From an uncultured Synergistia bacterium (GTDB lineage: Bacteria > Vulcanimicrobiota > SpSt-956 > JAKJGF01), in the NCBI GenBank assembly GCA_964431735.1, contig CAYSLJ010000009.1, positions 590 to 64,589 of the forward strand: a stretch of 64,000 nucleotides of DNA, in the 5' to 3' direction. Shown one piece after another: positions 3,789 through 24,359 of the stretch. The notes below the pieces were generated by a model that saw nothing but the letters and a program-made list of their open reading frames with translations, was not told where the DNA came from and made no database searches. A program made the translations under genes and the position numbers. Numbering within the stretch: position 1 is the first letter of the stretch; every line of letters starts with the position of its first letter.

Positions 3789-3910
3789 GTGAGTAGTGAG
3801 TGGTGAGTAGAATATGGCATTGTCACTCACTGTTCACTGTTCACTCATTACTGACCTGAGCATAAGCATGTAATAAATTGCATCCTCCCGTCACGCGTTA
3901 CGCGTCACGA
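3789..3910. repeat. inverted GTGAGTA / TCACTnn arrays, TTACTGACCTGAGCATAAGCATG module, GTCACGC array
   Basis: GTGAGTA GTGAGTG GTGAGTA (3789-3809) faces TCACTCACTGTTCACTGTTCACTCATTAC (3823-3851). Module at 3847-3890. GTCACGC GTTACGC GTCACGA at 3890-3910. Confidence 0.85.
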
Positions 3911-5539: not shown

Positions 5540-5581
5540 CTCTGTCAGTCAGGGGTTTGTTCGGATCACTACTCGCCTGTA

Positions 5582-5690
5582 ATCGTGACGCGTGACGCGT
5601 AGTTTCATCAGATGCCTGTCGAACACAGAGCTATTGCTTTTCACTGGTTCCCATTCACTTTTCACTCTTCACTCTTCCCCACTCACTTTT
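5582..5690 (-). repeat. intercistronic mosaic element (shorter)
   Basis: Minus-strand order: stop of the 366-aa gene, GTGAGTGGGGAAGAGTGAAGAGTGAAAAGTGAA, spacer, CTACGCGTCACGCGTCACGAT. Confidence 0.8.
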
Positions 5691-6783
5691 CCCTTATCAT
5701 CTCAATAAAATTCCTTCTTTTTAATTTTCTGCATATAGCCATGTTTATTTCCTTTATTGCTTTAAGTATAATATTAAAATCTTTTTCGAAAATTTCCAGG
5801 ACAAGCCTCAGAGGACGTCCGGATTTCACACAAAAATCCACTGCAAGCTCAAAGGCTGCCGAAATATTCATTTCAAAACCTTCATTATACATTTCTGGAG
5901 GCTCATCAAGTCGGAAACGGGCTTTGAAAGGATCTTCATCAGGATATATACCGGGGACAAGATGGGTTTCAGTCTGCCAGCAACCACCGAGATGCCAGAC
6001 ATATACATCATGAGGATTAAGAAGATTAAGGGTATCTTCCATTATCTGAGGAAATCTTTTAAAGCGAACATCTTCAAAGCCTTCTTTTCTTGTCTCACAT
6101 ATTAAAGCCTGAGATCTCCACAGATGGGACATATCAAAAACAAGTCTTGTCTCAGGTAATATGGCCTGACATTCTTCCAGTATTCTTTTTGTCTCAGTCG
6201 GAGTGGCAGGATATTTCGGAAACTCAAGTATTTCAATACATGGCACGAAGGAAAAACCTTCTTCTTTATAGACCTTTGCAAACTCACTGAAAACTTTTAT
6301 ACTTTCCGGTATAAAAACAAATTCTCTATAATTATCGTCTATCCACCTGTCTACCTGACACAGGTGGAATACAAAATAATCTGCATAAATACTGTTAGCC
6401 CATCTCATTACTTCAATAATACTTGCTATACTGTAGTTTTTCTTAAAACCGCTGATATCCAGAACATCTATTTTGAGGTTAGGGGCATGAACACCCAGGA
6501 TTCTTGGTTGTTCAAATATTTCATAACTTATGCCCTGATTTGCCGCAATTTCTGTCCACGAGTTTTTCTGAGGAATAAACATATTGTTCACATGGTCATA
6601 TTCACCCCAGATCTTTTCCGGTTGTAATTCCATAAGATAATAGGGAGATGAAAGGGTTACACGGAGGTCATGAATATAATAACGAAGACTGTCAGGTATG
6701 GATCTGCCAAGACGGACATCTGCCTTATTGACACAGGAAAGGGCGGGACCGACAAAAACAAATTCGTCAAACACGTTACTCAC
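5683..6783 (-). CDS. xylose isomerase-like TIM-barrel (sugar phosphate isomerase/epimerase / AP endonuclease 2 fold) protein
   Basis: 366 aa. Spaced motifs LGVHAP, FVFHL, IEILE, FDMSH, WHLGG and LEI are typical of the metal-binding TIM-barrel family. The stop lies inside a heptamer array. Confidence 0.5.
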   Translation of the reverse strand: MSNVFDEFVFVGPALSCVNKADVRLGRSIPDSLRYYIHDLRVTLSSPYYLMELQPEKIWGEYDHVNNMFIPQKNSWTEIAANQGISYEIFEQPRILGVHAPNLKIDVLDISGFKKNYSIASIIEVMRWANSIYADYFVFHLCQVDRWIDDNYREFVFIPESIKVFSEFAKVYKEEGFSFVPCIEILEFPKYPATPTETKRILEECQAILPETRLVFDMSHLWRSQALICETRKEGFEDVRFKRFPQIMEDTLNLLNPHDVYVWHLGGCWQTETHLVPGIYPDEDPFKARFRLDEPPEMYNEGFEMNISAAFELAVDFCVKSGRPLRLVLEIFEKDFNIILKAIKEINMAICRKLKRRNFIEMIREK

Positions 6784-6850: not shown

Positions 6851-6975
6851 AATTTAAGTGATCGTGACGCGTAACGCGTCACGCGTGACATGAGGAAACA
6901 TCTATTATATGCTTATGGTCAGGTCAGTAATAACCTCTTAATACGTGATGCACAGAGATTAAACTAGCCGTTACG
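6851..6975. repeat. ACGCGT heptamer array, inverted copy of the TTACTGACC module, second short array
   Basis: ATCGTGACGCGTAACGCGTCACGCGTGACA (6851-6880). Inverted module at 6882-6921. GCCGTTACGCGTCACGAGA at 6957-6975. Confidence 0.85.
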
Positions 6976-9261: not shown

Positions 9262-9390
9262 TCGTGACGCGTGACGCGTGACGCGAGGGTAATGACAGTT
9301 CTGATAGTTTGACAGGTTATTTTGTATCGTGACGCGTGACGCGAGGATTTCGAACAGCCCCATAGTCGTGAAAAGTGAAGAGTGAAATAA
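9261..9390 (+). repeat. two CGTGACG arrays plus a GTGAAnA array downstream of the C11-like gene
   Basis: ATCGTGACGCGTGACGCGTGACGCGAGG (9261-9288), ATCGTGACGCGTGACGCGAGG (9326-9346) and GTCGTGAAAAGTGAAGAGTGAAATA (9365-9389). Confidence 0.85.
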
Positions 9391-9500: not shown

Positions 9501-10006
9501 CCTTCACTGGCAGAAAAAGCCAGAAATCTGGATAAATCCCTGGAGGAAATGGTAAAAGCCAATTTCTATGTAGGCCAGGACGTAGATAAAGCAAAAGGGG
9601 TTGCCATTTATGCACCGGTAAAAAAACTTTCCCTATCAAGATATATCCTTGATGATGTATATCCCGAATTGAAACTGGCGAAAGAGACGGAATGGCTTAC
9701 CTTTATACAGGATCTTGCAAAAGACAAAAAACTTTATGCTTTTCTCAAATACCGTGGTGTAAGTCATGAAGACATAGATTTCCTTGATAAATGCTGGTAT
9801 AAGAGACTGTAAAGAAATAATCCTTGCAAATTGTCAGAACGGTTATTATCCTCGCGTGACGCGTTACGCGTTACGCGTCACGATATAGACTGTAAATATG
9901 ATGGAGTTATTTTTTCACAGACCCTAACATCTGTGAAATCACAAAAAAAAGTGTGGAAATAGGAAGTATAGGTGCTGCAATTACAGTCTTTAAATCTCTA
10001 AAGTAG
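9501..10006 (+). pseudogene. decayed fragment of a paralogue of the C11-like gene, split by a repeat module
   Basis: 9501-9812 encodes ..SLAEKARNLDKSLEEMVKANFYVGQ..GVAIYAP..VYPELKLAKETEWLTFIQ.., collinear with residues of the 7198-9261 product (HLAELAKELDKELGEMVIGNFYEGE..GIAIFAP..IYPELALNKETGWNDFIN). 9902-10006 encodes YFFT..SVEIGSIGAAIT, matching KFFT..GVSIGSIGLALT. There is no N-terminal domain and stops interrupt the frame. Confidence 0.75.
9804..9896 (-). repeat. about 73-nt module (ACGCGT heptamers + AATAACC..GGTTATT hairpin) bracketed by 10-bp direct repeats
   Basis: AGACTGTAAA at 9804-9813 and 9887-9896. The interior is about 90% identical to the reverse complement of 52282-52355. Confidence 0.85.
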
Positions 10007-10227: not shown

Positions 10228-11487
10228 TTAATTGATATCCTGCTCCTTTTTAATCAAACCTTCGTAATGCCTGGCAAGGGCAATGGCAGGTATAAATCTG
10301 ATGAGACTTATGGCAAGATTGAGAAAAGCCATATAATGAAGAGGTAAAGCCGTTACAATGAGGAGTAAACTTGCAAGACCGTCACCGAGTCGGCAGACAA
10401 AGGTTTCTACTATAGCCTTTCCCTGATATTTGAAATCCCTGTCAGTAGGCATATAAAGTATTTCTCTCGAAGCCCTGTTGAAGGAATATTCTGTGCTGTA
10501 ATTACCGATATGATACATACTTCCGAAGGTAAGGCTCCCGGAACAGATAAGGGAAAAAGAACCTGCCAGATTGACAAGGGGTGCTATTAAAACAGCCGGC
10601 ATCATACCTGCATATTTCACGATACGATGAACGCAGAATATCTGAAAAAACAATCCCAGTCCGTTAATCCATAGATTCATTTCTGCCCAGAATTCTGTCC
10701 TCAATGCCTTATCGGTAATACTGTATTTCACTATGGCATTCATCTGATTGTAAAGAACGGTTGCTCCTGAAGACATGAGAAAAGCGGCAAGCACCATCCA
10801 CTGAAGATATCCGGACTGAACAATCAGGGAAAAACCGCTTTCACCTTTTTCATGTTCCGATATTTTTTCCTGTTTATCCAGATCTTTGTCCCTGAGAGGA
10901 AGAAGCAAATACATAAAAGCAATTGTTATCATAAGAAGAAAGGAAGATAAAAAAAGAAGATTTTCCACTTCTATCCTGGTAGAAAGACTTGCCGTGAGGT
11001 AACTTCCCGCAAGTCCTCCGATAGTTCCACCTGCAGTTATTTTGCCGAAATAAGTCTTTGCATCATTGCTGTTACATATATCATTTACAAAAGACCAGAA
11101 CATGGTTACAGTGAAAACATTATAAATACCTACAAAGAAATAATATATTATTATCCATACATACCGTCCCGGTTGTATACCCAGAAAAGGTATATTTATT
11201 TGAGGCCATGACATCCTTAATATAAAGGCAAACAATAAAAGACATAAAGAAAAAAATATTGTTACAATCTTGATTAATCTTTTTGGATTTTGAATACATG
11301 CCAGTCTGTCGTAAATAAAATTAAAAAATAGAATGAATACCATAACTCCTATACCGAGATAGGGAACCCATTCATGAGGCAGTTCATTTGTAAGTGCTTC
11401 TCTCAGAGGTTTCACAATATAATAACCTGTCATTAAAGTAAATAACCACAGGAAAGATAACAGAGCAAGTTTATGTTCTCTTTTCAT
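10228..11487 (-). CDS. polytopic membrane transporter (MFS-like; N-terminus resembles Npt1/Tlc nucleotide-transporter family)
   Basis: 419 aa with about 11-12 hydrophobic helices. The N-terminal LTLMTGYYIVKPLREAL motif resembles the AAA/Tlc family signature. By-eye call. Confidence 0.5.
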   Translation of the reverse strand: MKREHKLALLSFLWLFTLMTGYYIVKPLREALTNELPHEWVPYLGIGVMVFILFFNFIYDRLACIQNPKRLIKIVTIFFSLCLLLFAFILRMSWPQINIPFLGIQPGRYVWIIIYYFFVGIYNVFTVTMFWSFVNDICNSNDAKTYFGKITAGGTIGGLAGSYLTASLSTRIEVENLLFLSSFLLMITIAFMYLLLPLRDKDLDKQEKISEHEKGESGFSLIVQSGYLQWMVLAAFLMSSGATVLYNQMNAIVKYSITDKALRTEFWAEMNLWINGLGLFFQIFCVHRIVKYAGMMPAVLIAPLVNLAGSFSLICSGSLTFGSMYHIGNYSTEYSFNRASREILYMPTDRDFKYQGKAIVETFVCRLGDGLASLLLIVTALPLHYMAFLNLAISLIRFIPAIALARHYEGLIKKEQDIN

Positions 11488-11565
11488 AATTACGATAGAA
11501 TAACACTACTTACATATTTTTGCAACTATAAACTATTTATTATTCAGGTTATTTGTGTTAATATA

Positions 11566-11599
11566 TTCGTGACGCGTAACGCGTGACGCGTAACGCGAG
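11566..11599 (+). repeat. CGTGACG/CGTAACG array upstream of nadK
   Basis: TTCGTGACGCGTAACGCGTGACGCGTAACGCGAG. Confidence 0.9.
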
Positions 11600-11634
11600 A
11601 TGATAAACCTGACTGAAGAGAGGAACTGTTTCAA

Positions 11635-12498
11635 ATGAAATCTGTCGGTTTGTTTCTCGACGATCAAAAAAAAGAAGCTATTGATACAGGGAAAAATTTA
11701 ATAAAATGGTTTAATGGGAAAAATCTTTCTGTCCTTACGACAAAAAGTCTGGCAAAAAAACTCTCCAGAGAAGAAATAGGATTGGAAAAAGAAGAACTTC
11801 TGAATAAGATAGACTGGGCGGTAACACTCGGCGGTGACGGAACATTTTTGAGATGGGCTCACTGGGTTTCGGCAAAATCCATTCCGCTTCTGGGTGTAAA
11901 TCTCGGAACCCTGGGATTTCTTACAGAGGTTAAATTATCCAACATATATGAAGATATAAATAAAGTCCTTGATGGAAAATTTGAAATAGAAAAAAGAATG
12001 ATGCTTGAAGTTACTGTTACTGTTGACGGAGAAAAGGTTTTTCGTGATATAATATTGAATGACGCAGTACTTTACAGAGCCCACCATTCTCGTTCGGTAA
12101 AAATCTGCGTAAAGGTAAGTGAGAAATTTAAGCTCACCTATTTCGGCGACGGAGTAATCATAGCAACTCCTACCGGTTCTACGGCATATTCTCTCTCTGC
12201 AGGAGGGCCCATAGTAAACCCGACTGTTGAAACAATCCTTGTAACACCGATATGCTCTCATTCTCTTTATCATAAACCCCTTCTGGTTCCTCCCAATGAC
12301 AGTATATGGCTGAGTAATGCAGAACCGACAAGAGATATAAGAATATCCCTTGACGGTCAGAAGGTATGGGAAATGAGTGATAATGATGTTGTACAGATAA
12401 GAAGGGCGGAAGAAACAACAAATTTTATAAAGATAGGAACAGATTATTACCAGTTGCTCAATGAAAAACTTCAATGGGGCGGCGTTTTATGTCAGTGA
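11635..12498 (+). CDS. nadK: NAD+ kinase
   Basis: GGDGTFLR, NLGTLGFLTE and DGVIIATPTGSTAYSLSAGGPIV motifs. 287 aa. Confidence 0.93.
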   Translation: MKSVGLFLDDQKKEAIDTGKNLIKWFNGKNLSVLTTKSLAKKLSREEIGLEKEELLNKIDWAVTLGGDGTFLRWAHWVSAKSIPLLGVNLGTLGFLTEVKLSNIYEDINKVLDGKFEIEKRMMLEVTVTVDGEKVFRDIILNDAVLYRAHHSRSVKICVKVSEKFKLTYFGDGVIIATPTGSTAYSLSAGGPIVNPTVETILVTPICSHSLYHKPLLVPPNDSIWLSNAEPTRDIRISLDGQKVWEMSDNDVVQIRRAEETTNFIKIGTDYYQLLNEKLQWGGVLCQ

Positions 12499-12628
12499 GT
12501 GGTGAAGAGTGAAAAGTGAGCAGGGGCGAACCACTGTGTTCGCCCGGTACCGGCAAAAATACGCATCACGCATTACGCATCATGCATCACGACCCACCCG
12601 TCACGCGTTACGCGTTACGCGTCACGAT
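12496..12628 (+). repeat. intercistronic mosaic element (GTGAnnn heptamers - GC hairpin - GGTACCGG - ACGCATC/ACGCGTT heptamers); archetype
   Basis: tGAGTGGTGAAGAGTGAAAAGTGAG, then GGGCGAAC-cactgt-GTTCGCCC (12524-12545), then GGTACCGG, then 10 in-phase ACGCnTn units ending GTCACGAT. Lies between the nadK stop and the next start. Confidence 0.9.
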
Positions 12629-12647
12629 TAAAAAAGAGGTGTAAATA

Positions 12648-13829
12648 ATGAAATTCAATTCTGAACATGCTTATAAATATACGGAAGATTTATCTTTCCC
12701 CCGATCTCCCGGCAGCGAAGGAGAGAAACAGGCAAGGGATTATATTATCGATAGTTTTAAACATAAGGAACTGGATGTGGAAATTCAGGAATTTAAATTT
12801 TCTACCTTCCCTCTTTCCGTTATGGCAAGGATTTTTCTATTGCTTCTCATAACAATGCAGATTCTTATGTATATCTGCTATGACAGAAATCCTTTATATT
12901 CTGTTTTGATTTCCTTTGTAGTTGTAAGTCTTATAATCACATCCACAAAATGGAGGAAAAATTATCATAAACTCTATGACGTTCCTTGGAAAGAAAAGAC
13001 TTCATGGAATATCATAGCCAGAAAAACAAAGGAAAATGCCACAAAAAATCTCATATTCCTTGCCCATTACGATTCAAAATCACAGACTCTTCCCGCTTTC
13101 TGGAGGGCAACTCTCTTCGGCACATCTCTCGTCGGAAGCGTTTCCCTCATAGGATTAACCACCGTGCTCGCAATATGTAAATTCATTGACTGGCCCGTTC
13201 CTGTGTGGGATAAAAGTCTTCTCTTTTATCTATGTGTCATTACAACTGTAGCTCTCTTTTTACTGCAACTTAACAGGTCAGGGAACAAATCTCCTGGCTC
13301 ACTGGACAATGCATCAGGCATTGGAGTTCTTCTAGAACTCGCGAAAATACTTCCTGAAGAGGTGAACAACACAAACCTTACTTTCATCGCAACAGGAGCG
13401 GAAGAAGACGGACTGTGCGGTGCGGTAAGATTTATGGAGACAGAAGGATATAAATACGATAAAGAAAAGACCTATTTTATAAATTTTGACGGCCCGGGAG
13501 CAGAAGGTAATATAATAATAACCTCTTCCTACGGAATACCTCCCTTTCATACGGGAGGCCTCCTGACTCCTCTGTCTTTAAAAATAGCAAAAGAACTTAA
13601 ATATCCTGTTACAAAGGGTTATATTCCTCTGGGAGCGGGACTGGATCAGTTTCCCGTATCGGTATACGGATTTCCTGTAATAACAGTATCAGGTGGTAAA
13701 TTATTTTCAAAGATAATTTTTGCAATTCACTCGGAATATGATAGAATGGATCTTATATCAAGACATGCTCTCGAAAGAGCCGGTAATCTGTGCTATAAAA
13801 TGGCTCTGGAGATAGACAGATATTTTTAG
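12648..13829 (+). CDS. membrane-associated M28 family metallopeptidase
   Basis: FLAHYDS, PGSLDNASGIGVLLELAK and TGAEEDGLCGA zinc-ligand blocks, with internal TM helices. Confidence 0.8.
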   Translation: MKFNSEHAYKYTEDLSFPRSPGSEGEKQARDYIIDSFKHKELDVEIQEFKFSTFPLSVMARIFLLLLITMQILMYICYDRNPLYSVLISFVVVSLIITSTKWRKNYHKLYDVPWKEKTSWNIIARKTKENATKNLIFLAHYDSKSQTLPAFWRATLFGTSLVGSVSLIGLTTVLAICKFIDWPVPVWDKSLLFYLCVITTVALFLLQLNRSGNKSPGSLDNASGIGVLLELAKILPEEVNNTNLTFIATGAEEDGLCGAVRFMETEGYKYDKEKTYFINFDGPGAEGNIIITSSYGIPPFHTGGLLTPLSLKIAKELKYPVTKGYIPLGAGLDQFPVSVYGFPVITVSGGKLFSKIIFAIHSEYDRMDLISRHALERAGNLCYKMALEIDRYF

Positions 13830-13895
13830 AGTTGAAAGTTGAGAGTTGAGAATTGAGAGTTTAAAACACTCAACACTCAACATTAAACCATAAAC
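13827..13895 (+). repeat. different heptamer family (GAGTTGA-type) followed by its inverted form (CAACACT)
   Basis: TAG-AGTTGAA AGTTGAG AGTTGAG AATTGAG AGTTTAA AACACTC AACACTC AACATTA. The array contains the stop of the M28 gene. Confidence 0.85.
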
Positions 13896-13915
13896 TATAT
13901 TTAAGAGGTGATTTT

Positions 13916-15040
13916 ATGTTAACAGAATTCGCTCCTCCCGAGAGAGCGGAACTTAAAGAAGTTATGGAACAGAATATGGCTTTAAAAGACCATACCCTTA
14001 TAAAAACACTCCTTGATAGTTCCCCTGATATGGTAGTCATACTGAACGAGTATCGGCAGATTATCCTGGCAAATGATAATTTTTTGAAATTTCTGAATAG
14101 AGAAGAAGAAAAGAATATTATCGGGAAAAGGCCGGGGGAAGCTGTAGGTTGTATTCATGCCGATGAAGGGCCGGGAGGATGTGGCACATCAAAATTCTGT
14201 AAATATTGCGGTGCAGCCCATGCTATAGTAAACACCATTACACAAAATAAAAAAGATGTACAGGAATGCAGGATAAATATCAGCGATGAAGCAGGTATTA
14301 CTGCATTAACACTTCGTGTATGGACAACACCTTTCAATATCAATGGCGATAACTATGTTATCTTCTGTGTCAGAGATGTATCAGATGAAAAATACCGTTA
14401 TATGCTCGAGAGGATTTTCTTTCATGATATTTTAAACCTTGCCGGAGGACTTCAGGGTATTATGGAATTAATGCCTGATCTGACAGAAGAAGAGGCAAGG
14501 GATTTTTATAAAGAAGGTCTCACTCTTTCAAGACAGCTTATAGGAGAAATAGAAAGCCAGCGTTCCCTTCTTCAGGCAGAAAGAGGAGATTTACATGTAA
14601 ATATTACAGAAATTTTTGTGCCTGAATTTCTGTCTGCCATATGTACACTCTATAGAAATCATCCTGTAGCGGAAAACAAAATTATGCCGGAACCGAACAT
14701 CAAAGGGGAACATTCTATAGACACAGACCAGGTACTGTTAAGTAGAGTAATAGGAAATCTCATAAAAAATGCTCTTGAAGCATCTGAACCGGGTCAGAAA
14801 GTAACAGTTTCTTATACAAATGATAAGAAAAATATTGTATTTTCTATCTATAATGAAAAAGAAATGCCTGAAGAAGTAAAAATGCAGATATTTAATCGTT
14901 CTTTCAGCACGAAAGCATCTTCAGGTAGAGGACTCGGCACATACAGCGTAAAACTTTTAACGGAAAGATATCTGAAAGGTAAAGTGGATTTTACTTCTAC
15001 AGAGGAAGGAACTACTTTTAATGTGAGATTGCCTGTTTAG
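13916..15040 (+). CDS. cytoplasmic sensor histidine kinase with Cys-rich PAS-like sensor
   Basis: PAS-like N-terminus carries CIHADEGPGGCGTSKFCKYCGAAH. H-box FFHDILNLAGGL, N-box NLIKNALEAS and G2-like GRGLGTYSV. Confidence 0.8.
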   Translation: MLTEFAPPERAELKEVMEQNMALKDHTLIKTLLDSSPDMVVILNEYRQIILANDNFLKFLNREEEKNIIGKRPGEAVGCIHADEGPGGCGTSKFCKYCGAAHAIVNTITQNKKDVQECRINISDEAGITALTLRVWTTPFNINGDNYVIFCVRDVSDEKYRYMLERIFFHDILNLAGGLQGIMELMPDLTEEEARDFYKEGLTLSRQLIGEIESQRSLLQAERGDLHVNITEIFVPEFLSAICTLYRNHPVAENKIMPEPNIKGEHSIDTDQVLLSRVIGNLIKNALEASEPGQKVTVSYTNDKKNIVFSIYNEKEMPEEVKMQIFNRSFSTKASSGRGLGTYSVKLLTERYLKGKVDFTSTEEGTTFNVRLPV

Positions 15041-15178
15041 TGAGTCGTGAGTAGGGAAAAGTGAATAGTGAATAGTGAAAAGTGAGTAGGGAAAAGTGAA
15101 TAGTGAATAGTAAAAAGTGAAGCCTGAAGGGTGAGCAGGCATACCCTGCGCATCACGCATCACGCGTCACGCGTCACG
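15038..15178 (+). repeat. intercistronic mosaic element
   Basis: About 12 GTGAnnn-type units, a weak AGGGT..ACCCT hairpin, then GCGCATCACGCATCACGCGTCACGCGTCACG. Confidence 0.85.
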
Positions 15179-15202
15179 TTTCCGTACAACAGGAGAATAA
15201 AA

Positions 15203-16135
15203 ATGACAACATATCTGATAACAGGGGGCTGTGGTTTTATAGGCTCCCACATAGCTGAAGAACTTTTAAAAAGTCAGGAAAATAAGATTATTATAATAGA
15301 TAATTTATCATCCGGATATTTAAAAAATATTGAACATATAAAAGACAGAGTGGAATTTATAGAAGCAGATATAAGAGATTTCAACAAAATACTTCACGCA
15401 ATGAAAGGTGTGGATTATGTTTTTCATGAAGCTGCTCTCGTATCGGTTTTCGATTCTATAAATCGCCCTCTTGATAATCACAGTATAAATCTAACTGGAA
15501 CTCTTAATATTCTGGAAGGTGCCAGAAGAAGTAAAGTAAAAAGAGTAGTCCTGGCAGGTTCTGCTGCAGTATACGGCAACGATCCTGTTCTTCCGAAGGT
15601 TGAAACTATGGTTCCATGCCCTCTGACTCCCTACGGGATATCAAAGCTGGGAAAAGAGTATTACGGAAAAATTTATTCGGAACTATATAATTTACCTGTC
15701 ATATCACTCAGATATTTCAATGTATTCGGCCCGCGGCAGGATCCGTCTTCTCCATATTCAGGTGTCATCTCAAAATTTACAGATAATATCCTGTCAGGCA
15801 AATCCCCCGTTATATTCGGCGATGGTCTGCAGACAAGGGATTTTGTATTTGTAAAAGATGTGGTAAAAGCAAATATTCTGGCTATGAACAGTAAGAAAGT
15901 TAAGGGCGGAGAAGTATTTAATATTGCCACAGGCATTTCGGAGAATCTTATAACATTACTGGAAATAATAAATAAAATTGCAGGAAAAAATATAAAGGCA
16001 ATCTATAAAGAGGAACGGGAAGGAGACATAAGACATTCTGCGGCAGATATAACAAAAGCCAGAGAGATACTGGGATATGAACCTTCTTTTACTCTGGAAG
16101 ATGGAATGAAAATACTTCTTTTAAATAGAGAGTAA
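15203..16135 (+). CDS. NAD-dependent nucleotide-sugar epimerase/dehydratase (SDR, UDP-sugar 4-epimerase-like)
   Basis: GGCGFIGSH Rossmann motif and YGISK catalytic YxxxK. AGGAG lies 7 nt upstream of ATG 15203. The longer track ORF from 15131 starts inside the repeat array. Confidence 0.88.
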   Translation: MTTYLITGGCGFIGSHIAEELLKSQENKIIIIDNLSSGYLKNIEHIKDRVEFIEADIRDFNKILHAMKGVDYVFHEAALVSVFDSINRPLDNHSINLTGTLNILEGARRSKVKRVVLAGSAAVYGNDPVLPKVETMVPCPLTPYGISKLGKEYYGKIYSELYNLPVISLRYFNVFGPRQDPSSPYSGVISKFTDNILSGKSPVIFGDGLQTRDFVFVKDVVKANILAMNSKKVKGGEVFNIATGISENLITLLEIINKIAGKNIKAIYKEEREGDIRHSAADITKAREILGYEPSFTLEDGMKILLLNRE

Positions 16136-16191
16136 TATCTTTTCCATCTAAATTCATACCAGTTCATTTAACGTTTTTTTATTCAGTTAAC

Positions 16192-16698
16192 TTATTTCGC
16201 CACTTCTGCATGTAAAACATGCCTGGCAGCTTTCTCTGATAACTTTGATCCGACATAACCTCCGAGAAGTGGCAGTCCAACCATAGCAGCCACAATTACC
16301 AGGCAGGCGACCCGCGCCACAGGGCCTTGTGCTAATGTTGCGTTCATCAGGACACTGTTAATGGATGGAGAGGATGATGCATGGAATGCTAAAGCGACAT
16401 ATGCAGCTGTTCCTCCAATCACACCGGTTGCAGTTCCTAATGCTTTCGCCGTCATTACTGTAACCTCTTTAAAATCTTTTTTAGAAAAGGACGGTGATAC
16501 ATTATTCTCCTTAGCAATTTCACTGGCAGCAAAATTTTTTAGTTTTTTCATAAGTTCTATATTGGCATCTTCCGATCTTCCATTGAAAATAGCTATATCT
16601 TTAATCTCTTCCCCGTCTTTTCTGGCAACTAAAATACCTGAAACATTGCCGGTAGAAACATTTTTTATCGGACTCTGGCTAATTTTCATAAAAAACAT
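16192..16698 (-). CDS. hypothetical protein with Gly/Ala-rich hydrophobic C-terminus
   Basis: 168-aa ORF downstream of pelG on the same strand. The C-terminal GTATGVIGGTAAYVALA..VAAMVGLPLLGGYVG is glycine-zipper-like. Confidence 0.45.
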   Translation of the reverse strand: MFFMKISQSPIKNVSTGNVSGILVARKDGEEIKDIAIFNGRSEDANIELMKKLKNFAASEIAKENNVSPSFSKKDFKEVTVMTAKALGTATGVIGGTAAYVALAFHASSSPSINSVLMNATLAQGPVARVACLVIVAAMVGLPLLGGYVGSKLSEKAARHVLHAEVAK

Positions 16699-16929
16699 CC
16701 TCTCCGTATATATAAATAAAATTATCCTTCTACTATAGAATATTCAGATATTCAAGTAAAAGTTTCATTTATTTTATTATAATTATTTTTCTTTCTGCTG
16801 TCTTTATAATAATAACACAATAATAATAACACATTCCATCAGGTGGGCTGTTATAAAAGTTTTGTTCCTGAGTAAAATCAGGCATAGCAAACGAATCGAA
16901 GTAATCTCACTGTTATATGGAACATTGGT

Positions 16930-18336
16930 TCAGTCTTTAAATTTCGGCATTACCGGCTGTCCCTGAGAAACAGGTTTACAGAGAAAAGTCAGATAATTAA
17001 GATGTTTCATTTTATACATGAGATTGAGAAATATTATAACAGTGCTGATTATTATTGCTATCAGGTAGCCGGTACCCAAAGTAAAAGAGCTATGCCATAT
17101 AAACAGATAGCTCAGGATTCCGTTTAACATGGTGAATATGGAAATACATACAAGGGAATCTGTAAGTAATTCAAGATACCAGTGTAATACGACAAGAACC
17201 AGAAATAAAATCTGGAAAAAAGCAGCTACTATAAGTATTCGAAATACAGGGACAATATCATCTACATTAAAATGGAGAAACCTTATTATATAAGGAGCTA
17301 TAAGAAAGATTATAAGGGTAATAAAAAACTGTATTTTTGTTATGTGCAGTAATTTGTCCTTCAAAGCTGAAATCAAAAAAATTCTTTTATCTTCTATTTC
17401 TTTATAAGTACCTTCATTCAGAATTGTATTTATATATTTTCTCAATCCTTCATAAAAATCTGTTTCTACCTGCAGAAAAAATACGGACATGGCAGGAATT
17501 ATTGTAAGTGCAGCCAGAAAAGACGATGTATCATAGGGATAATGGGCCAGAAAAGCTGCTTCCAATCTGATACCTTCAGGAGAATACCAGACAATCAATT
17601 TATCAAGCCAGTAGCCGAGATTATATAAAAAAGCAGCCAGTGCAAGCTGGGGATATTTATTAAAATATCTCGTAAATTCAAAAATTCTGTCTTCTCCCCA
17701 TGTAAATTCACTTTTTATACGTCCTATAAGAAAGATTACAATGGCAACCTGCCCCAGCGTAAACCCTGCAAGGTAACCTTCTGTATGCCAGTAATTACCT
17801 GCAATCATAGCAGTAAGAAAACTTAATATAAATCCAAGAAAATATATGGAAACAACCTTTATATAATCCCTCAGAGATGAGAGGAAAACCATTATTATCC
17901 ACTGAAAAGACACGGTACAGAATAAAATTACAAATAATATTTTCAATATAAAATTTACTGTAGAAAAAGATATAAAAACAGAAGAAGCAATAAAACATAA
18001 GAGTCCTGACAGAAACATGACACCGGCAAAATTCGGAAACAGTGCAGAATATTCCCTCTGGTACAATCTATCTGAAATAAAACGGGTCAGCACTAATTGA
18101 AATATACTTGTAATAATCAGGGAAAAGGTATATACATAGACTATTATAACCCTGAATAATACCATAGGGGGCTGAACAGAATAAGAGCCGGCAAATACAC
18201 TGAGACCTGCTATGGACATAACGGCAAAAAGCCAGGGACCGGAAGATATAACAAGTGAAATTAAATTTGCTTTAAAATCACTGACATATCTGTCTTCATG
18301 CAATAATTTTTTTAACAGAAAACCTATGCCTGCCAT
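16930..18336 (-). CDS. pelG: Pel polysaccharide export membrane protein PelG
   Basis: N-terminus MAGIGFLLKKLL is as in PelG. About 12 TM helices, 468 aa, last gene of the pelD-E-F-G order. Confidence 0.85.
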   Translation of the reverse strand: MAGIGFLLKKLLHEDRYVSDFKANLISLVISSGPWLFAVMSIAGLSVFAGSYSVQPPMVLFRVIIVYVYTFSLIITSIFQLVLTRFISDRLYQREYSALFPNFAGVMFLSGLLCFIASSVFISFSTVNFILKILFVILFCTVSFQWIIMVFLSSLRDYIKVVSIYFLGFILSFLTAMIAGNYWHTEGYLAGFTLGQVAIVIFLIGRIKSEFTWGEDRIFEFTRYFNKYPQLALAAFLYNLGYWLDKLIVWYSPEGIRLEAAFLAHYPYDTSSFLAALTIIPAMSVFFLQVETDFYEGLRKYINTILNEGTYKEIEDKRIFLISALKDKLLHITKIQFFITLIIFLIAPYIIRFLHFNVDDIVPVFRILIVAAFFQILFLVLVVLHWYLELLTDSLVCISIFTMLNGILSYLFIWHSSFTLGTGYLIAIIISTVIIFLNLMYKMKHLNYLTFLCKPVSQGQPVMPKFKD

Positions 18337-18356
18337 AAATGGTAAACCTTTCTTTA

Positions 18357-18530
18357 TTCGTCACGCGTAACGCGTTACGCGTGACGGGTGGGTCGTGATG
18401 CGTGATGCGTGATGCGTAGTTTACGTGACGCGTGACGGGTGGGTCATATCCAGGGCGTTTAATAAAACGCCCCTACGACTCACTTTTCACTCTTCACTTT
18501 TCACTCTTCACTCTTCACCCTTCACTACTC
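18357..18530 (-). repeat. intercistronic mosaic element (pelF-pelG junction)
   Basis: TCACTCT/TCACTTT x7 on the top strand. Hairpin GGGCGTTT-aata-AAACGCCC (18453-18472). GATGCGT x3 and ACGCGT units. Confidence 0.9.
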
Positions 18531-20860
18531 AACAGTTTCTTAAACTCCTCACCGTATCTCTCCAACACATCTTTCTTCTGATAATATCTTTCCATTCTTA
18601 TTTTCCCTGTTTGAGCCATTCTTTTATAGAGGTGTTCATCCCTCAATATGGTCATTATGGCGCCTGCTGTTTCAGAGGTAGCATGGACATTCGTTATAAG
18701 TCCGCATTTTCCGAGCATCTCGTCTTCACCGTCTTTACCGTATAAAAGTTCCCTGCAACATCCTACATTTGTAGCCACACATGGTATGCCGGCACTCATG
18801 GCTTCCATTAACGTAAGAGGCTGTCCTTCACTTATACTGGTAAGCACAACCAGATCTACATCATTAAAAGCCTCTGCCAGATTTACATTACCGGTGAATT
18901 CCACAATGCCGTCAAGGCCCATCAGGTTTATAAGGGTAATACATTCATCAAAATATTCTCTGTCTTCATCATAAGGCCCCATAACAAGAAATTTAACATT
19001 TCCCCCCATTTCATCACATACAAGCCTGGCTGCAAGAATGTAAGTTTTTATGTCTTTTATGGGTACAACTCTTCCTACAAGCGTTACAGTAAGAGTTTTT
19101 TTATTCAGTTCCTTTGGCTTAACTGATGTAAATCTCTCCATATCAATTCCGTTTGGAATAATAACAATCCTGGAAGGGTCTGCTCCTGCTTCTATTTCCA
19201 TTCTCCCGTTATCAGAGAAAAGAGTAGTTATAGTAGACGAATGGGTATATACAAGAGAACTCAGGGTAAGATAAAGATTTATCCATACTTTTTTCAACCC
19301 TGTAAATACTTCCCTTGCCATATAACCGTCCTGTTTTATCTCATAGATCCAGTTGGCCTGGTTTATTTCTATCATTCTCTCCCTGTGGTAAATACCATGT
19401 TCTGTTAACATCAAAGGTTTATTGTAATATAAACTGGAAAGAGTTGCTCCCAGTCCTGCATATCCGGTAAGGACAGTATAAAATAAAGAAGCAGGCGGAT
19501 AAGTGGCTCTTAAAATATTATAAACCGGTAATACAAGAGATCTGTATGACCAGATGTATTCAAGAAAAGGCACATCTGAAAGACTGTTATTATAAAGTTT
19601 TGTTATAAATTTCCATGCTTCGGGAGAGAAAAAAAGGTCACCTATATCCAGTTTAAAACCCTCCATAACACCCAGTTCTTTACATAAACATTTAAATCTG
19701 TCTTTATCTATTTTCCCGGAAGATATTATGAAATCAAAGAGAAGATCCATTAACTGCCGGGCTCCGGTGTTTTTACCTTTCCTCTTTATATCCGGTAAAT
19801 CGTATAAATATATATCTTTATAATATAAAATATTTTTCGGAAGATCATACTTAAATTCTTTTATTTCAGAGCTGGAAGCCACCATATGAACAACAGAAAA
19901 AGTAAAATCTTTAAAATACTTAATCTGTTCCTGAACCCATGAAGAGACACCGCCTCTTACATAAGGATAACTTCCTTCCACAAAAAGACATATGTCTGCT
20001 TTTTCGAAATTCTTTTCCTTTGAAAATTTTGCCATAGTCCATTTCAATACAGGATTTGTAACATCATCGGCATCGACAGAGAGGTTTTTATCTCTGAAAA
20101 GTGACTCTGCCATACCGGATTCTCTCAATACTCTGAGTACTTCATTTCTTACATTTTTATCTCTTTCTTTTTTTAAATAATTTTTCAATATCCCGGGAAT
20201 AGTACAGGATTTAATCTGTCCCAGAGCCCATACACATGTAACACGAACAGAAGGATTTTCATCGTTGAGGAGTTTAACAAGTTCATTACAGGCTTTTTTG
20301 ATTTTTCTACTGCCACAGTAAAAGGCTGCAGTATATCTGACTTCTGCATCACAGTCTCTCAAAGATTTTATAACAGTATCTTCGGCTCTTTCATCTCCGA
20401 TAAGACGGAGGCTGTCTATTATACGGGCCCTTATTCCGGGGTCTTTATCCTTTAATATCCCGATAAGCGGTATAACAGCATTTGCCTGTTCTCCCATGCC
20501 AAGAGATTTTATTGCATAAGTGCGGACATAATCATCAGATGAAGCGAGCAAATCCAGGAAATAATCATATTTAAAATCAGATCTTATATTATCCAGTGCT
20601 CTTTCTGCAGTTCTCTGAATAATTTTGCTTTCATCAAATAAAAATTCTGTTAAATCTTTAACAGTACTTTTATAATCAAATAAAGACAGATGTTTTATAA
20701 CATAATACTTAATCTTAAAATCAGATAATTTCACTGCCTGTGCCAGACTGTGAAGATCTTCTTCGTTCTTTATTTTCGAAAGAAGATATTCTGCTTCTTC
20801 CCTCTTTGTTGTATCCAGAAGCACAAGACCATTGAATATTTTCTCTATTGTTTCTTCCAC
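18515..20860 (-). CDS. pelF: PelF-type GT4 glycosyltransferase with about 280-aa N-terminal HEAT-repeat extension
   Basis: DICLFVEGSYPYVRGGVSSWV (near nt 19995) is the PelF N-terminal signature. GT-B C-terminal EGQPLTLMEAMSAGIP. The N-terminal part has repeated D.....VR..A..ALG HEAT/PBS-lyase units. Confidence 0.88.
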   Translation of the reverse strand: MEETIEKIFNGLVLLDTTKREEAEYLLSKIKNEEDLHSLAQAVKLSDFKIKYYVIKHLSLFDYKSTVKDLTEFLFDESKIIQRTAERALDNIRSDFKYDYFLDLLASSDDYVRTYAIKSLGMGEQANAVIPLIGILKDKDPGIRARIIDSLRLIGDERAEDTVIKSLRDCDAEVRYTAAFYCGSRKIKKACNELVKLLNDENPSVRVTCVWALGQIKSCTIPGILKNYLKKERDKNVRNEVLRVLRESGMAESLFRDKNLSVDADDVTNPVLKWTMAKFSKEKNFEKADICLFVEGSYPYVRGGVSSWVQEQIKYFKDFTFSVVHMVASSSEIKEFKYDLPKNILYYKDIYLYDLPDIKRKGKNTGARQLMDLLFDFIISSGKIDKDRFKCLCKELGVMEGFKLDIGDLFFSPEAWKFITKLYNNSLSDVPFLEYIWSYRSLVLPVYNILRATYPPASLFYTVLTGYAGLGATLSSLYYNKPLMLTEHGIYHRERMIEINQANWIYEIKQDGYMAREVFTGLKKVWINLYLTLSSLVYTHSSTITTLFSDNGRMEIEAGADPSRIVIIPNGIDMERFTSVKPKELNKKTLTVTLVGRVVPIKDIKTYILAARLVCDEMGGNVKFLVMGPYDEDREYFDECITLINLMGLDGIVEFTGNVNLAEAFNDVDLVVLTSISEGQPLTLMEAMSAGIPCVATNVGCCRELLYGKDGEDEMLGKCGLITNVHATSETAGAIMTILRDEHLYKRMAQTGKIRMERYYQKKDVLERYGEEFKKLLSSEG

Positions 20861-20890
20861 TTAACTATCTCCGCCTATCAGTGTATGAGA

Positions 20891-21000
20891 ATCGTAACGA
20901 GTAACACGTAACGCGTGACGGGTTTAATCCCTGTACATTATGCATTACCAATTACTTTGTAACGAGTCACCTGTCACACATCACCTGTTACGCATCCAGG
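20891..21000. repeat. degenerate CGTAACG array and TCACCTG/TCACACA heptamers at the pelF-pelE junction
   Basis: ATCGTAACGAGTAACACGTAACGCGTGACGGG (20891-20922). TCACCTG TCACACA TCACCTG TTACGCA (20973-21000) covers the pelE stop and its last codons. Confidence 0.75.
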
Positions 21001-22005
21001 TTCTCTCCAGTAAACGATAAAATCTTTTATCTTTTCTTTTTCATCACCGTCATATATTTCAATGAGAGATTCTATTTTTTTTATATACACGTCCATATGC
21101 TTTAAATCCTTTTTCTGCCAGTAACACTCAGAAATAGCTATTAAAGATGACATATCATGTTCTTTTGAAGAAAGAGATTTTTCTATGTACTTTATAGCTT
21201 TATCATAATCTCTTTCATAGAGATAAAGTTTCCCCATTAAAAAATTGGTTTCATACTGGTCTGAATTTAATTCCAGTGACTTTCCGAGCATCGATTTCGC
21301 ATGTCCCAGTTCATCTTTTATTGTTTTATAATTATCAAATAATCCGGAAAAAGCATATTCCATTATAACACTTCCCAGATCAAGATAAATTCTGTAATCT
21401 GAAGGATGTTCTTTAAGTTCCAGTTTTAATTCATTTATAAAAAGATTATATTTTTCCGATATAGTTGCAAGTTCTTCTCCTGCATAATATCTTATATCCA
21501 TATGGCGATCATTTAACAAATCCTTTAAAATCTCAATTGAATTATGACTTACAAATTTTCCCAGTGATTTCACCAGATTCAATTTCTGGCTGAAATCCTC
21601 TTCAATCCTTACAGAATCACGAAAAGGCTGAAGATCAATATTTAATTTTAAAAAATCAAGAGATTTTGTTAATTTCGGAGTTTTATCTCTGTCTCTCGTA
21701 TCTGATAAAATATACTCCCTGTACTCTTCATAGAGATTTAATGTTTTTCCTTTATCCTTCCTCCTCAACATCTGATAAATACCGATATAGCCAAAGACCG
21801 GTAAAGACATGAGAAAAATAAATACAAAAGGATAAAAGGTTTTTCTTTTATCTTTAAGTAAATACACAGACAGAGAAGCCAGGAGAGAAGCCATTATATG
21901 TCCTGTCATAATATAGACTTCCCAATCTGTATAATTACGGAATAGAAGATATAAAGAACATACTTCCAGAAAAAAACTTGATATCATAAAAAAAATAGAA
22001 ACCAT
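20974..22005 (-). CDS. pelE: PelE-like inner-membrane TPR protein
   Basis: 343 aa with N-terminal TM helices and a TPR-like C-terminus. It sits between pelD and pelF. 1-nt overlap with pelD. Confidence 0.65.
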   Translation of the reverse strand: MVSIFFMISSFFLEVCSLYLLFRNYTDWEVYIMTGHIMASLLASLSVYLLKDKRKTFYPFVFIFLMSLPVFGYIGIYQMLRRKDKGKTLNLYEEYREYILSDTRDRDKTPKLTKSLDFLKLNIDLQPFRDSVRIEEDFSQKLNLVKSLGKFVSHNSIEILKDLLNDRHMDIRYYAGEELATISEKYNLFINELKLELKEHPSDYRIYLDLGSVIMEYAFSGLFDNYKTIKDELGHAKSMLGKSLELNSDQYETNFLMGKLYLYERDYDKAIKYIEKSLSSKEHDMSSLIAISECYWQKKDLKHMDVYIKKIESLIEIYDGDEKEKIKDFIVYWREPGCVTGDV

Positions 22006-23414: not shown

Positions 23415-23425
23415 AAATTTTAATA

Positions 23426-23548
23426 ACGTGACGGGTTGGTTCGTGATGCGTAATGCGTAATGTGTGATAATCGTGACGCGTAACGCGTAACGCGTGACGG
23501 GTAAGTATCCCTTTCACTTTTCACTTTTCACGACTCACCACTCACTCA
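23426..23548 (-). repeat. intercistronic mosaic element (receiver-pelD junction, no GC hairpin)
   Basis: TTCACTT units, CGTGACGCGTAACGCGTAACGCGTGACGGG, and GTGATGCGTAATGCGTAATG. Confidence 0.85.
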
Positions 23549-23947
23549 AACAGGTCTGTTCTGTATTTTCTCTACAAAACCAACAGCTTTTACAAGCTCA
23601 TCATTGGAAAAAGGCTTGTTGATATAATAATCTGCACCGTAATCATAACTTGTAAGAACTGCATCCGATGTTTTCAAAGCAGTTAACATTATTACCGGAA
23701 TATGCTTTGTTTTAGGGTTTGATTTAATTTTCAGTGTAGCCTGAATACCATCCATTCTGGGCATCATTATATCCATTAAAATAACATCGGGCTGCAGTTC
23801 AAGCGCTTGTTCTACTGCTTCAACTCCGTTATCTACTATGGTTAACTCATAGCCAATTTTCCCAAGAATAGTTTTAATAACAAGTCTTATAGGTACAGTA
23901 TCCTCTGCAAGGAGGGCTTTTTTTCTATCTTCACTCATAATAATCAT
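23546..23947 (-). CDS. single-domain response regulator (CheY-like receiver)
   Basis: DVILMDIMMPRMDG, LTA and K-P motifs. 133 aa, inside the pel gene string. Confidence 0.9.
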   Translation of the reverse strand: MIIMSEDRKKALLAEDTVPIRLVIKTILGKIGYELTIVDNGVEAVEQALELQPDVILMDIMMPRMDGIQATLKIKSNPKTKHIPVIMLTALKTSDAVLTSYDYGADYYINKPFSNDELVKAVGFVEKIQNRPV

Positions 23948-24220: not shown

Positions 24221-24246
24221 GAATATTCTGTGATAAATTTCTTTTT

Positions 24247-24289: not shown

Positions 24290-24359
24290 GGAAAAGAAGC
24301 CGTTAAAATTTTGAGTAAAGAAGCAGGAGAAAAATTATTTATAATAGATAAAATTAAAG

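Follow-up and report, generated by a model that had tools for sequence, protein, structure and literature searches.

The 64-kb stretch of DNA analysed here (the window) comes from an uncultivated sludge bacterium of a clade labelled Vulcanimicrobiota, and many of its intergenic gaps carry a composite of tandem heptamers, which we describe from one plus-strand copy located between the genes for NAD kinase (nadK) and an M28 peptidase. The nadK stop codon TGA (12496-12498) lies inside the first unit of a stop-side arm, GTGAGTG GTGAAGA GTGAAAA GTGAGCA (12495-12522), the TGA of unit 1 being the stop codon itself. The arm is followed by a GC hairpin, type A, with the sequence GGGGCGAAC / CACTGT / GTTCGCCC (12523-12545), which appears in both the minimum-free-energy and the centroid structures and is preceded by the tetranucleotide GCAG (GTAG in most copies). 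The unstranded palindrome CCGGTACCGG (12544-12553) is found within a conserved linker, GGTACCGGTGAAAAY, after the hairpin. The start-side arm is composed of two arrays: an inner one, ACGCATC ACGCATT ACGCATC ATGCATC ACGA (12561-12592), whose opposite strand consists of GTGATGC/GTAATGC units, and an outer one, GTC ACGCGTT ACGCGTT ACGCGTC ACGAT (12600-12628), whose opposite strand consists of GTGACGC/GTAACGC units. They are joined by ACGACCCACCC (12589-12599), a conserved and phase-keeping junction of the form ACGA(A/C)CCACCC. The outer array stops 19 nt before the ATG of the M28 peptidase (12648), with the ribosome-binding site (RBS) GAGGTG in between.

On the opposite strand ACGCGTC, ACGCGTT and ACGCATC read GTGACGC, GTAACGC and GTGATGC, and a phase-aware array finder assigned every heptamer array of the composites to GT(G/A)Annn (hereafter GTRAnnn). 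Since both types of array are GTRAnnn on opposite strands, the composite is a foldback of the form 5'-(GTGAnnn)n ... (nnnTCAC)n-3'. Read from the stop codon, it consists of (GTGAnnn)n, the GC hairpin and (nnnTCAC)n, with about 25 nt (20-30 nt) left before the next start. Because ACGCGT is itself palindromic, the ACGCGT-type arm is also self-complementary at 6 of 7 positions. We conclude that the element is one high-copy family of modular foldback intergenic repeats built from a polar heptamer satellite, GTRAnnn, and that the composites change fast through whole-unit slippage and exchange of modules between copies.

A single shared plan was obtained from the alignment of 43 junction-bearing copies. 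On the stop side, the stop codon is followed by (GTGAGTS)(GTGAARR)n GTGAGYA; the middle is either of type A, G-GGGCGAAC..GTTCGCCC-GGTACCGGTGAAAAY, or of type B, G-GGGCGTTTWATTAAACGCCC-YGGRWT..AAT; and the start side runs from (ACGCATY)n through ACGAMCCACCC and GTC(ACGCGTY)n ACGAT(TATA) to the RBS and ATG. The period of 7 continues through the junction, which reads GTGACGG GTGGGTC GTGATGC. In the loci retrieved, approximately 720 kb of DNA and almost all of it from the clade, hairpin A is present in about 25 copies and hairpin B in 16, always inside the composite and in one fixed orientation relative to the arms, and therefore we regard the hairpins as parts of the element and not as independent inserts. 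An independent small mobile insert, similar to the short dispersed repeats of cyanobacteria, was considered and rejected for now, because neither hairpin was seen outside the composite in 685 kb. The non-repeat linkers common to the copies likewise argue for descent from common templates as opposed to independent local slippage. Two variants depart from the usual unit: a TTGA-core foldback on the plus strand, (TTGARAG)n followed by (CACTCAA)n, between the stop of the M28 peptidase and the start of a histidine kinase (13828-13882), and a minus-strand composite between two ABC ATPase genes (54028-54116), whose stop-side arm is made of the 8-nt unit GTGAAAGA (54078-54116). In both variants TGA is retained and the period is not divisible by three.

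Genes were modelled by greedy calling of open reading frames (ORFs) with starts shifted past the arrays, and these models are weaker in the high-GC loci. Loci L005-L132 were selected by motif, and the taxonomic labels of metagenome-assembled genomes (MAGs) are used as given. The pattern GTGANNNGTGANNNGTGA, which represents three GTGAnnn units, matched 46 times in the window against 0.00 expected from 100 dinucleotide-preserving shuffles, and Tandem Repeats Finder reported dozens of period-7 rows throughout the window. All 39 window arrays of at least three units are intergenic; of 214 arrays in the window and the loci together, 8 fall inside ORFs, and the greedy calls class about 88% of this DNA as coding. 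Arrays are present in 21 of the 32 window gaps of at least 60 nt and account for 1211 of 7994 intergenic bases.

The arrays are polar with respect to genes. Sense arrays, which place GTGA in the mRNA, lie at a median of -1 nt from the upstream stop codon; at the recurrent offsets of -4, -11 and -18 the gene terminates on the TGA of unit 1, 2 or 3. Antisense arrays, which place TCAC in the sense strand, lie at a median of 28 nt before the next start. When neighbouring arrays no more than 120 nt apart were compared over 685 kb of clade DNA without any gene model, the order GTGA-then-TCAC was found 100 times and the reverse once. Asymmetric composites (purine arm first) within same-direction gaps run along transcription in 35 cases and against it in 4. 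The two arms also differ in composition: in sense RNA the stop-side arm has 9% C and 39% G, a GC skew of +0.62 and 418 stop codons in 2758 nt, whereas the start-side arm has 38% C and 18% G, a GC skew of -0.36, and 7 starts and 7 stops in 2863 nt. AGA and AGG units together make up 14% of stop-side units and 2.6% of start-side units; placed before an RBS, such units would read UCUUCAC or CCUUCAC, which are anti-Shine-Dalgarno-like. As a side idea we considered Shine-Dalgarno mimicry by the stop-side arm, and found only a GGUGA-type complementarity of 5-6 nt to a canonical 16S tail, which may not be that of the host.

A preliminary description of this DNA had listed ten sites at which two different heptanucleotide arrays surround a GC hairpin, and we inspected the sequence of each. 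The order that it gave is present at all ten, although its "at least ten copies", right as to recurrence, understates the 39 arrays of the window, and the two arrays proved to be a single unit class, inverted. The GC hairpin ascribed to all ten sites can be seen in several; sites 5582, 15038 and 23426 have a weak one or none, and the one at 37408 is degenerate. Hairpin B is indeed identical at 18452 and 34604 (given there as 18453 and 34605), and the start-side run does preserve phase across the junction, but heptamers are not used throughout, given the 8-nt unit at 54078-54116. Orientation was said to follow the upstream gene, which agrees with the 35 to 4 count, with the composite at 3789-3908 opposing both of its flanking genes. 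The proposed position inside apparent operons is upheld by Pfam matches to NAD kinase/M28, PelF-like glycosyltransferase/PelG and NurA...HerA. The suggested comparison of unit counts between relatives revealed whole-unit differences at orthologous gaps.

The relatives were identified by a PelG search, which led to three GTDB species representatives labelled Vulcanimicrobiota (CTOTU7676, ER2 and ER1); the window represents a fourth genome, and its DNA is 86-97% identical to theirs. An exact-protein look-up of two proteins returned no record for one and one extra relative for the other, and the fifth related assembly is a Logan contig. Arrays are present at orthologous junctions in all five assemblies. 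At the PelF-PelG junction, where the flanks are conserved, the window has hairpin B and two start-side blocks, ER2 has hairpin A, and CTOTU7676 has no hairpin and carries a TCACTGG arm in place of ACGCGTC. Other orthologous junctions with conserved flanks differ by indels of 7, 14, 42 or 63 nt or have whole unit classes changed. Exact unit counts rest on short-read assemblies. Over all orthologous alignments 12 of 61 indel lengths are multiples of 7; their lack of dominance is attributed to the messy alignments in these regions, and we cite only the clean events for whole-unit change. A locus-specific hairpin variant common to ER1 and ER2 at one junction indicates that copies are also inherited vertically. 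At the few comparable orthologous loci no target duplication could be recognised and no clean empty site was found, and the cases of presence and absence are messy rearrangements. One segment of about 800 nt downstream of pelG (16136-16935), comprising a 168-aa ORF without Pfam match (16192-16698) and its flanks, is present in the window and ER1 and absent from CTOTU7676 and ER2, a whole-gene insertion or deletion at a gap. A distant relative with 55% PelG identity (L004) has no period-7 arrays in 12 kb. Of 185,579 species genomes, only CTOTU7676, ER2 and ER1 have the junction motif (39 stretches); 11 metagenome contigs carry it as well, including one from activated sludge. The complete composite is confined to these three genomes and a few contigs from sludge.

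The four-unit ACGCGT-type array occurs, among the matches listed, in MAGs labelled Aminicenantes, Acidobacteria, Bacteroidales, Clostridia, Nitrospirae, Acetothermia, Planctomycetota, Verrucomicrobia, Myxococcota and others, with a G+C content from 38% to 70%. In the listed matches from other phyla the arm is nearly always exactly 28 nt long with a border at which ATC is followed by GTGACG, the arms are paired in the order GTGA-then-TCAC with 70-500 nt of other sequence between them, and in 52 of 72 cases the end of a same-strand ORF of 100 aa or more lies no more than 40 nt before the arm. The four pairs that we checked lie between convergent genes, and Pfam supports a real gene on at least one side of each. 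Two loci with ACGCGT-type arms (L094 and L056) also hold GTGAAGA-type arrays. The four-unit array had no match in 2.9 million viral contigs, and a phage origin was rejected for that reason. In high-GC MAGs the ACGCGT arms also enclose a nearly identical run of about 63 nt of nnnCCAA heptamers (AAATTCCAAATCCCAAGCACCAAAT...) with its inverted partner (L045 3353-3502; L046 4956-5018 and 7911-7973; L067 376-439; L097 1633-1784). Since these MAGs are labelled Aminicenantes, Acidobacteria and Clostridia, this nested foldback suggests either horizontal spread or unreliable labels.

The remaining window copies illustrate the range of the plan. The plus-strand composite at 3789-3908, already mentioned as opposite to both flanking genes, has a GTGAGTA arm, a TCACTGT arm and an ACGCGT arm and is fused to another repeat module. 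The minus-strand composite at 5575-5700 separates two genes of unknown function; its stop-side arm overlaps the stop of the upstream gene, and its central hairpin is weak. Three sense-oriented plus-strand arrays (9264-9388) directly follow the stop of a clostripain-like gene: GTGACGC three times, then twice, then GTGAAAA/GTGAAGA. The gap between the histidine kinase and an epimerase holds a plus-strand composite (15040-15178; downstream start re-set to 15203) with a 14-unit stop-side arm, a weak hairpin GCCTG..CAGGC and an ACGCATC/ACGCGTC arm. On the minus strand, the composite between the genes for the PelF-like glycosyltransferase and PelG (18357-18530) has a 7-unit stop-side arm, the second unit of which is the upstream stop, hairpin B as GGGGCGTTTTATTAAACGCCC, and its two start-side blocks. 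Also on the minus strand are a degenerate copy (20894-20991), whose stop-side array overlaps the stop of the gene at 20974-22005 and whose start-side units at 20894-20921 are GTAACGA/GTAACGC; a copy between the genes for a response regulator and a GAF protein (23426-23548), with only GGGATACTTACCC where other copies have the GC hairpin; the second identical hairpin B copy (34551-34684), after a tetratricopeptide repeat (TPR) gene at 34681-37110; and a short one with a degenerate hairpin B, GGGTGTTTAGTTAAATGCCC (37375-37463). A solo plus-strand ACGCGT-type array (38410-38437) lies 14 nt upstream of the start of a minus-strand gene, in whose leader it reads TCAC, and a six-unit plus-strand stop-side array in a convergent gap (42901-42942) provides in its third unit the stop of a 1384-aa TPR gene.

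The plus-strand composite downstream of NurA (45782-45981) is enclosed by two ACGCGT-type arms that form an outer inverted pair (45786-45813 and 45949-45976), and it has the strongest predicted fold. NurA, a 187-aa ORF without Pfam match and HerA form a cluster (44609-48233) with arrays at both internal junctions (45782-45994 and 46568-46595), so the elements are evidently tolerated within tight functional gene pairs. The minus-strand composite at 48236-48367 occupies a convergent gap, where its stop-side arm supplies the stop of a radical-SAM gene and its other end abuts the stop of HerA. A solo four-unit GTGACGC array (49679-49706, minus strand) lies in sense orientation 32 nt after the stop codon of rho (49739-51010, minus strand); the presence of this gene bears on the idea of Rho loading discussed below and proves nothing. 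A minus-strand composite with no hairpin at an FtsX-ABC junction (54799-54870) consists of a GTGACCR arm followed by a GCGTCAC arm, and a close relative has other unit classes there. Protein ends lie within arrays at 18515-18525, 42901-42918, 48347-48364 and 20974-20991, so that the last 1-5 residues are encoded by the repeat and vary among relatives; the PelF-like protein, for example, ends in ..LLSSEG, ..LLKSEG and ..LLNSE in three genomes.

Other repeats were also noticed in the window. A second family, TTACTGACCTGAGCATAAGCATGTAATAAA, has 4 copies against 0 expected, at 3848-3877 (+), 6901-6930 (-), 38598-38627 (+) and 44302-44331 (-). In 3 of the 4 it adjoins CCTCCCGTCACGCGTTACGCGTCACGAGA..ATATA..TTATTTATRCTCACC.CAGTAAT, and in both plus-strand copies TTACTGACCTGAGCATAAGCATGTAATAAA is the one that comes second. 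The copies are located in long or divergent gaps, two of them upstream of large genes (7198 and 38764), and the family is possibly a promoter-region module or another small mobile element. Some arrays end in GACGCGAGG and continue into a conserved module, GAT(G)ATAACCGTTCTRAYAATTTGMCAGGGTTATTTT..TTACAGTCYCTAAT, with a small inverted repeat of its own, GATAACC..GGTTAT (9285-9330, 9830-9860 in reverse and 52314-52375, as well as loci L065 and L043); this module is duplicated or absent between relatives, with indels of 70, 351 and 457 nt. A tandem cassette duplication (58018-58317 with 59463-59762, and 58832-59026 with 60253-60447) comprises two paralogous genes without Pfam match (58118-59017 and 59731-60438), which have upstream regions 94% identical and are each followed by 8-9-nt arrays (CACGGATTA / TCGGATTA). 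Between the cassette genes there is a 42-nt inverted repeat (59098-59139 and 59198-59239) made of 8-9-nt units, which means that foldbacks here are not limited to 7-nt units. Finally, one gap contains a GC-rich palindrome with 31-nt arms (62750-62819) and an AT-rich palindrome with 18-nt arms (62845-62893), both unrelated in sequence to the heptamers; the G+C content at 62-64 kb is 43%, against about 36% overall.

We compared the composites with known intergenic repeats of bacteria. Heptamers of the short tandemly repeated repetitive (STRR) type were reportedly described in cyanobacteria by Mazel and colleagues in 1990, and Jackman and Mulligan are said to have reported variable, structured nif intergenic regions in 1995. 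STRRs such as CCCCAGT, TTGGTCA and CAACAGT are tandem heptamers in transcribed operon spacers, variable between strains and associated with stem-loops. GTRAnnn is not an STRR in the strict sense, since its units are GTGAAAA, GTGACGC, GTGATGC and so on and its host is labelled Vulcanimicrobiota and not as a heterocystous cyanobacterium; to our knowledge no fixed composite of array, hairpin and inverted array has been described for STRRs. Repetitive extragenic palindromic (REP) sequences, the bacterial interspersed mosaic elements (BIMEs) made of them and the REP doublets called REPINs are extragenic and transcribed, lie in operon gaps and at operon ends as mosaics of palindromes and linkers with a GTAG-like sequence 5' of the palindrome, and stabilise upstream mRNA. 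The composite resembles them in placement, modularity, high copy number and possibly the GTAG-like tetranucleotide before the hairpin, so that the likeness to REP/BIME suggested in the preliminary description is a fair one as regards placement and modularity. Nearly all copies have (G)TAG or (G)CAG before GGGGCG..., a sequence that is also the end of the last GTGAGTA unit. Unlike BIMEs and REPINs, each composite has a single hairpin in fixed orientation, with no alternating palindromes or inverted doublets, and unlike REPs it has arms of variable-number tandem heptamers and no sequence similarity to them. Pneumococcal BOX, the Correia/NEMIS elements of Neisseria and enterobacterial ERIC are small co-transcribed intergenic elements with long imperfect hairpins and orientation-dependent effects on mRNA. 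BOX shares with the composite a variable number of an internal module, but the arms of BOX, Correia and ERIC are unique sequence, whereas those of the composite are tandem repeats, and the sequences are unrelated; we know of no gene-end polarity rule as strict as this one for these elements.

Among heptamer repeats of other bacteria, Geobacter metallireducens has dozens of copies of 4-5 tandem heptamers (GGACCGG; MTYCTGA), some of them paired on opposite strands at variable distance (PMC2700814). They differ from the composite in their units, in lying partly within genes, and in having neither a hairpin/linker composite nor a described gene-end polarity. The TAACTGA repeats of marine Beggiatoaceae, cyanobacteria and Bacteroidetes are intergenic, contain stop codons and overlap gene ends by up to 18 nt (MacGregor 2015, PMC4679880); one exact heptamer has spread patchily across phyla, and a role at the level of RNA or translation was proposed. 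They lie in forward orientation directly upstream of starts in 2-6 copies, are almost never inverted and have no hairpin module (PMC4679880), whereas GTRAnnn is a different unit whose forward, stop-containing arrays abut stops and not starts. The closest parallels concern the GGGNATC and GGGGA(C/T)T heptamers of Xanthomonas and Nostoc, which are strongly intergenic and mostly found between same-direction ORFs (Rehm et al. 2015, PMC4692102). Their G-rich strand is the coding one up to 50 bp after a stop, overlap included, and the non-coding one up to 50 bp before a start; they lie near the 5'-neighbouring ORF, are transcribed, occur also as inverted pairs, vary in unit number and sequence between close relatives at the same junction, and are of unknown function (PMC4692102). 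GTRAnnn is likewise a tandem 7-nt repeat with intergenic position, the same gene-end polarity, inverted pairs and variation in unit number. It differs in its unit, in showing no preference for four units in the clade, in units that carry a stop codon, and in a single recurring composite in which GC hairpins and conserved linkers connect the arrays; having no G-tracts, its units would form no quadruplex. The GTRAnnn arrays show those traits of the LSSR class that were tested, namely at least three tandem units, exclusion from coding sequence, polarity and variation of unit number between relatives.

A literature search for the exact unit strings found no paper, and no description of the cross-phyla 28-nt ACGCGT-type arm was found in the searched literature. 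The composites belong to a known class of polar bacterial heptamer repeats and are unusually organised within it. What is new is the fixed composite of array, hairpin, linker and inverted array, the saturation of operon junctions, and the 28-nt arm recurring at convergent gene ends across phyla. The earlier remark that the element was of an unrecognised kind thus holds for the organised composite and not for the polar heptamer rule, already reported in PMC4692102, or for the ACGCGT-type arm, which many phyla share. An Rfam search of the whole window at gathering scores gave no match, and the statement in the preliminary description that the hairpins have no U-tract and do not look like intrinsic terminators was confirmed: composite hairpins are followed by GGTACCGG... 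or YGGRAT... instead of a U-tract, and no terminator-like site at 11000-25000 coincides with one, although the 14 terminator-like matches at 11-25 kb are a modest excess over shuffles (8.6 ± 2.8). Promoter-like matches at 11-25 kb were no more numerous than in shuffles, and none was tied to a composite. By reasoning only, we rejected integron attC-like sites, because housekeeping synteny is kept across relatives and the core-site consensus does not fit, and programmed frameshifting or a selenocysteine insertion sequence, because the units are not slippery heptamers.

We favour, with a probability of roughly 0.45, the reading that the composite is a co-transcribed, REP/BIME-like and generically acting spacer with an orientation constrained by translation. 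It would be transcribed together with the flanking genes and would behave as a largely self-propagating or weakly beneficial structured spacer of the REP/BIME type, and not as a sequence-specific switch. Its strict polarity would be imposed by translation. Because 7 mod 3 is 1, the stop-side arm puts TGA or TAA in all three frames, and it could stand next to a gene end, or in its place, without harm. In the mRNA the start-side arm is C-rich and nearly free of starts and stops, and it avoids the anti-Shine-Dalgarno-like CCUUCAC and UCUUCAC beside the RBS. In predicted RNA folds the in-register pairing of GUGA with UCAC gives a ladder of helices, each of 4-5 bp, with the GC hairpin at its tip. 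The likeliest effect may come from a structure on the 3' side of the upstream cistron, formed by a stable GC hairpin and by GUGA:UCAC pairing in several registers; this structure would protect the mRNA or divide it into parts, and would uncouple the cistrons on either side. The element is probably a transcribed spacer with its orientation policed by translation signals; any function is something that we infer.

Several observations weigh against this reading. The folds of whole composites on their sense strands are only marginally better than dinucleotide shuffles (z from -1.5 to -3.8), and 2 of 4 sense-strand centroids retain no more than the GC hairpin and the ACGCGU self-hairpin or lose most of the ladder; these two hairpins are predicted in the two sense-strand copies that have them, and strong folds are predicted for the copy at 45782-45981, with its two ACGCGT arms, and for the foldbacks of other phyla. 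The unit numbers of the two arms are uncorrelated (rho 0.04) and their variable nnn positions are not complementary, so a long stem is not clearly selected; the uncorrelated unit numbers and weak z-scores led us to rule out a long matched stem as the selected feature. Both co-transcription and any role of the composites in RNA are points that we infer. Because GGGAATC repeats show the same polarity without stop codons, a stop-codon filter is not its general cause, and a translational filter cannot be the whole explanation of polarity. The 28-nt ACGCGT arm of other phyla looks more like a recognised site or a terminal inverted repeat than a drifting satellite, and arrays in two thirds of the gaps could indicate a positive function.

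It is unlikely, though worth serious attention, that the composite is a mobile element similar to miniature inverted-repeat transposable elements or REPINs, in which the inverted arrays would be terminal inverted repeats for a transposase or HUH nuclease encoded elsewhere, copies would spread by transposition and the ACGCGT-type arm would have moved horizontally between phyla. The strict 5'-GTGA...TCAC-3' arrangement (100:1), the conserved non-repeat linkers and the module-sized differences in presence between relatives are consistent with this, and so are the arms of other phyla, which in the matches listed nearly always have four units (28 nt), borders of ATC followed by GTGACGCGTAACGCGTGACGCGTGACG, and inverted partners 70-500 nt apart. 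In a test for terminal inverted repeats, the outer ends TCGTGAGTCGTGA and TCGTGACGCGTGA agree by eye at 11 of 13 positions. The GTAG/GCAG found 5' of the GC hairpin recalls REPs, but GTAG may be no more than the end of the final GTGAGTA unit. The few comparable loci provided neither a target-site duplication nor a clean empty site, the four-unit array occurs in none of the 2.9 million viral contigs, and Pfam scans of 40 of the 44 window ORFs, with the rest of the 685 kb of clade DNA unscreened, showed no transposase or domain similar to REP-associated tyrosine transposases (RAYTs). Moreover, arm length varies by whole units and sequence classes vary at orthologous sites, which is unusual for a protein-recognised end.

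Somewhat more doubtful is a register-specific binding platform for an oligomeric protein, be it a cold-shock/OB-fold protein with a footprint of 6-7 nt, a HutP- or TRAP-like ring, or Rho. HutP recognises UAG triplets with a spacing of 7 nt, a cold-shock domain contacts about 7 nt, and the RNA preferred by Rho is rich in C and poor in G. A platform would account for the invariant GTRA core with its free nnn, for the strict period kept across junctions and for a polarity that is set by strand composition (GC skew +0.62 and -0.36) and not by sequence class; the same G-rich/C-rich polarity is seen in the unrelated GGGNATC family. If the protein is Rho, transcription that enters a gene always meets the C-rich strand: Rho loaded on the antisense of the stop-side arm would then block antisense transcripts, and the start-side arm would couple downstream transcription to translation. 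The organism encodes Rho, but start-side arrays of only 20-60 nt are below typical Rho loading sites. The number of units is also highly variable (3 to more than 20), and unit classes are swapped between close relatives with no obvious constraint.

We also consider, as a speculation less probable than either of these, that the GTRAYGC arm is the signature of a horizontally spreading, cross-phylum system of "gene-boundary punctuation" with a dedicated installer enzyme or binding protein. If so, convergent genes in Acidobacteriota/Aminicenantes, Bacteroidales, Nitrospirota, Planctomycetota and others would be separated by inverted pairs of a 28-nt near-palindromic array, placed right after the stop codons. 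The array would serve as a polar insulator, with three-frame stops and G-rich RNA leaving genes and C-rich RNA entering genes to load Rho or another protein, and the sludge clade would have expanded the 28-nt array into a full intercistronic mosaic.

It is improbable that the foldbacks are factor-independent terminators or attenuators lacking a U-tract, bidirectional between convergent genes and partial inside operons. The perfect 28-bp arms of Aminicenantia and Acidobacteria do form long stems between convergent genes, overlapping each stop or within about 20 nt of it, and one window composite lies in a convergent gap (48236-48367); most clade copies, however, are inside apparent operons (pel and ABC transporter genes), where termination would be harmful, neither strand has a U-tract, and the composite folds are weak. 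Although all sources are metagenome assemblies, in which repeats can collapse or expand, the very remote chance that the arrays are artefacts of short-read assembly is effectively refuted as regards their existence, exact unit counts being uncertain, since arrays occur at orthologous junctions in five independent assemblies from different assemblers and inside long contigs (one, of 492 kb, belongs to an unrelated Bacteroidales genome), are mostly shorter than a read, and obey gene-relative rules that an artefact would not know.

The 28-nt ACGCGT-type arm would matter for the annotation of gene ends and the prediction of terminators in uncultivated lineages, and for the quality of assembly and binning. 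The function of heptamer repeats has been a standing question since the description of STRRs in 1990, and this clade offers an extreme and very regular case, in which two thirds of the gaps have arrays, exceptions to orientation amount to about 1%, hairpins and linkers wire the arrays together, and change is visible across five assemblies. The fact that GGGNATC and GTRAnnn share polarity, and that TAACTGA shares the stop-codon constraint, points to a general mechanism acting through translation, transcription or mutation.

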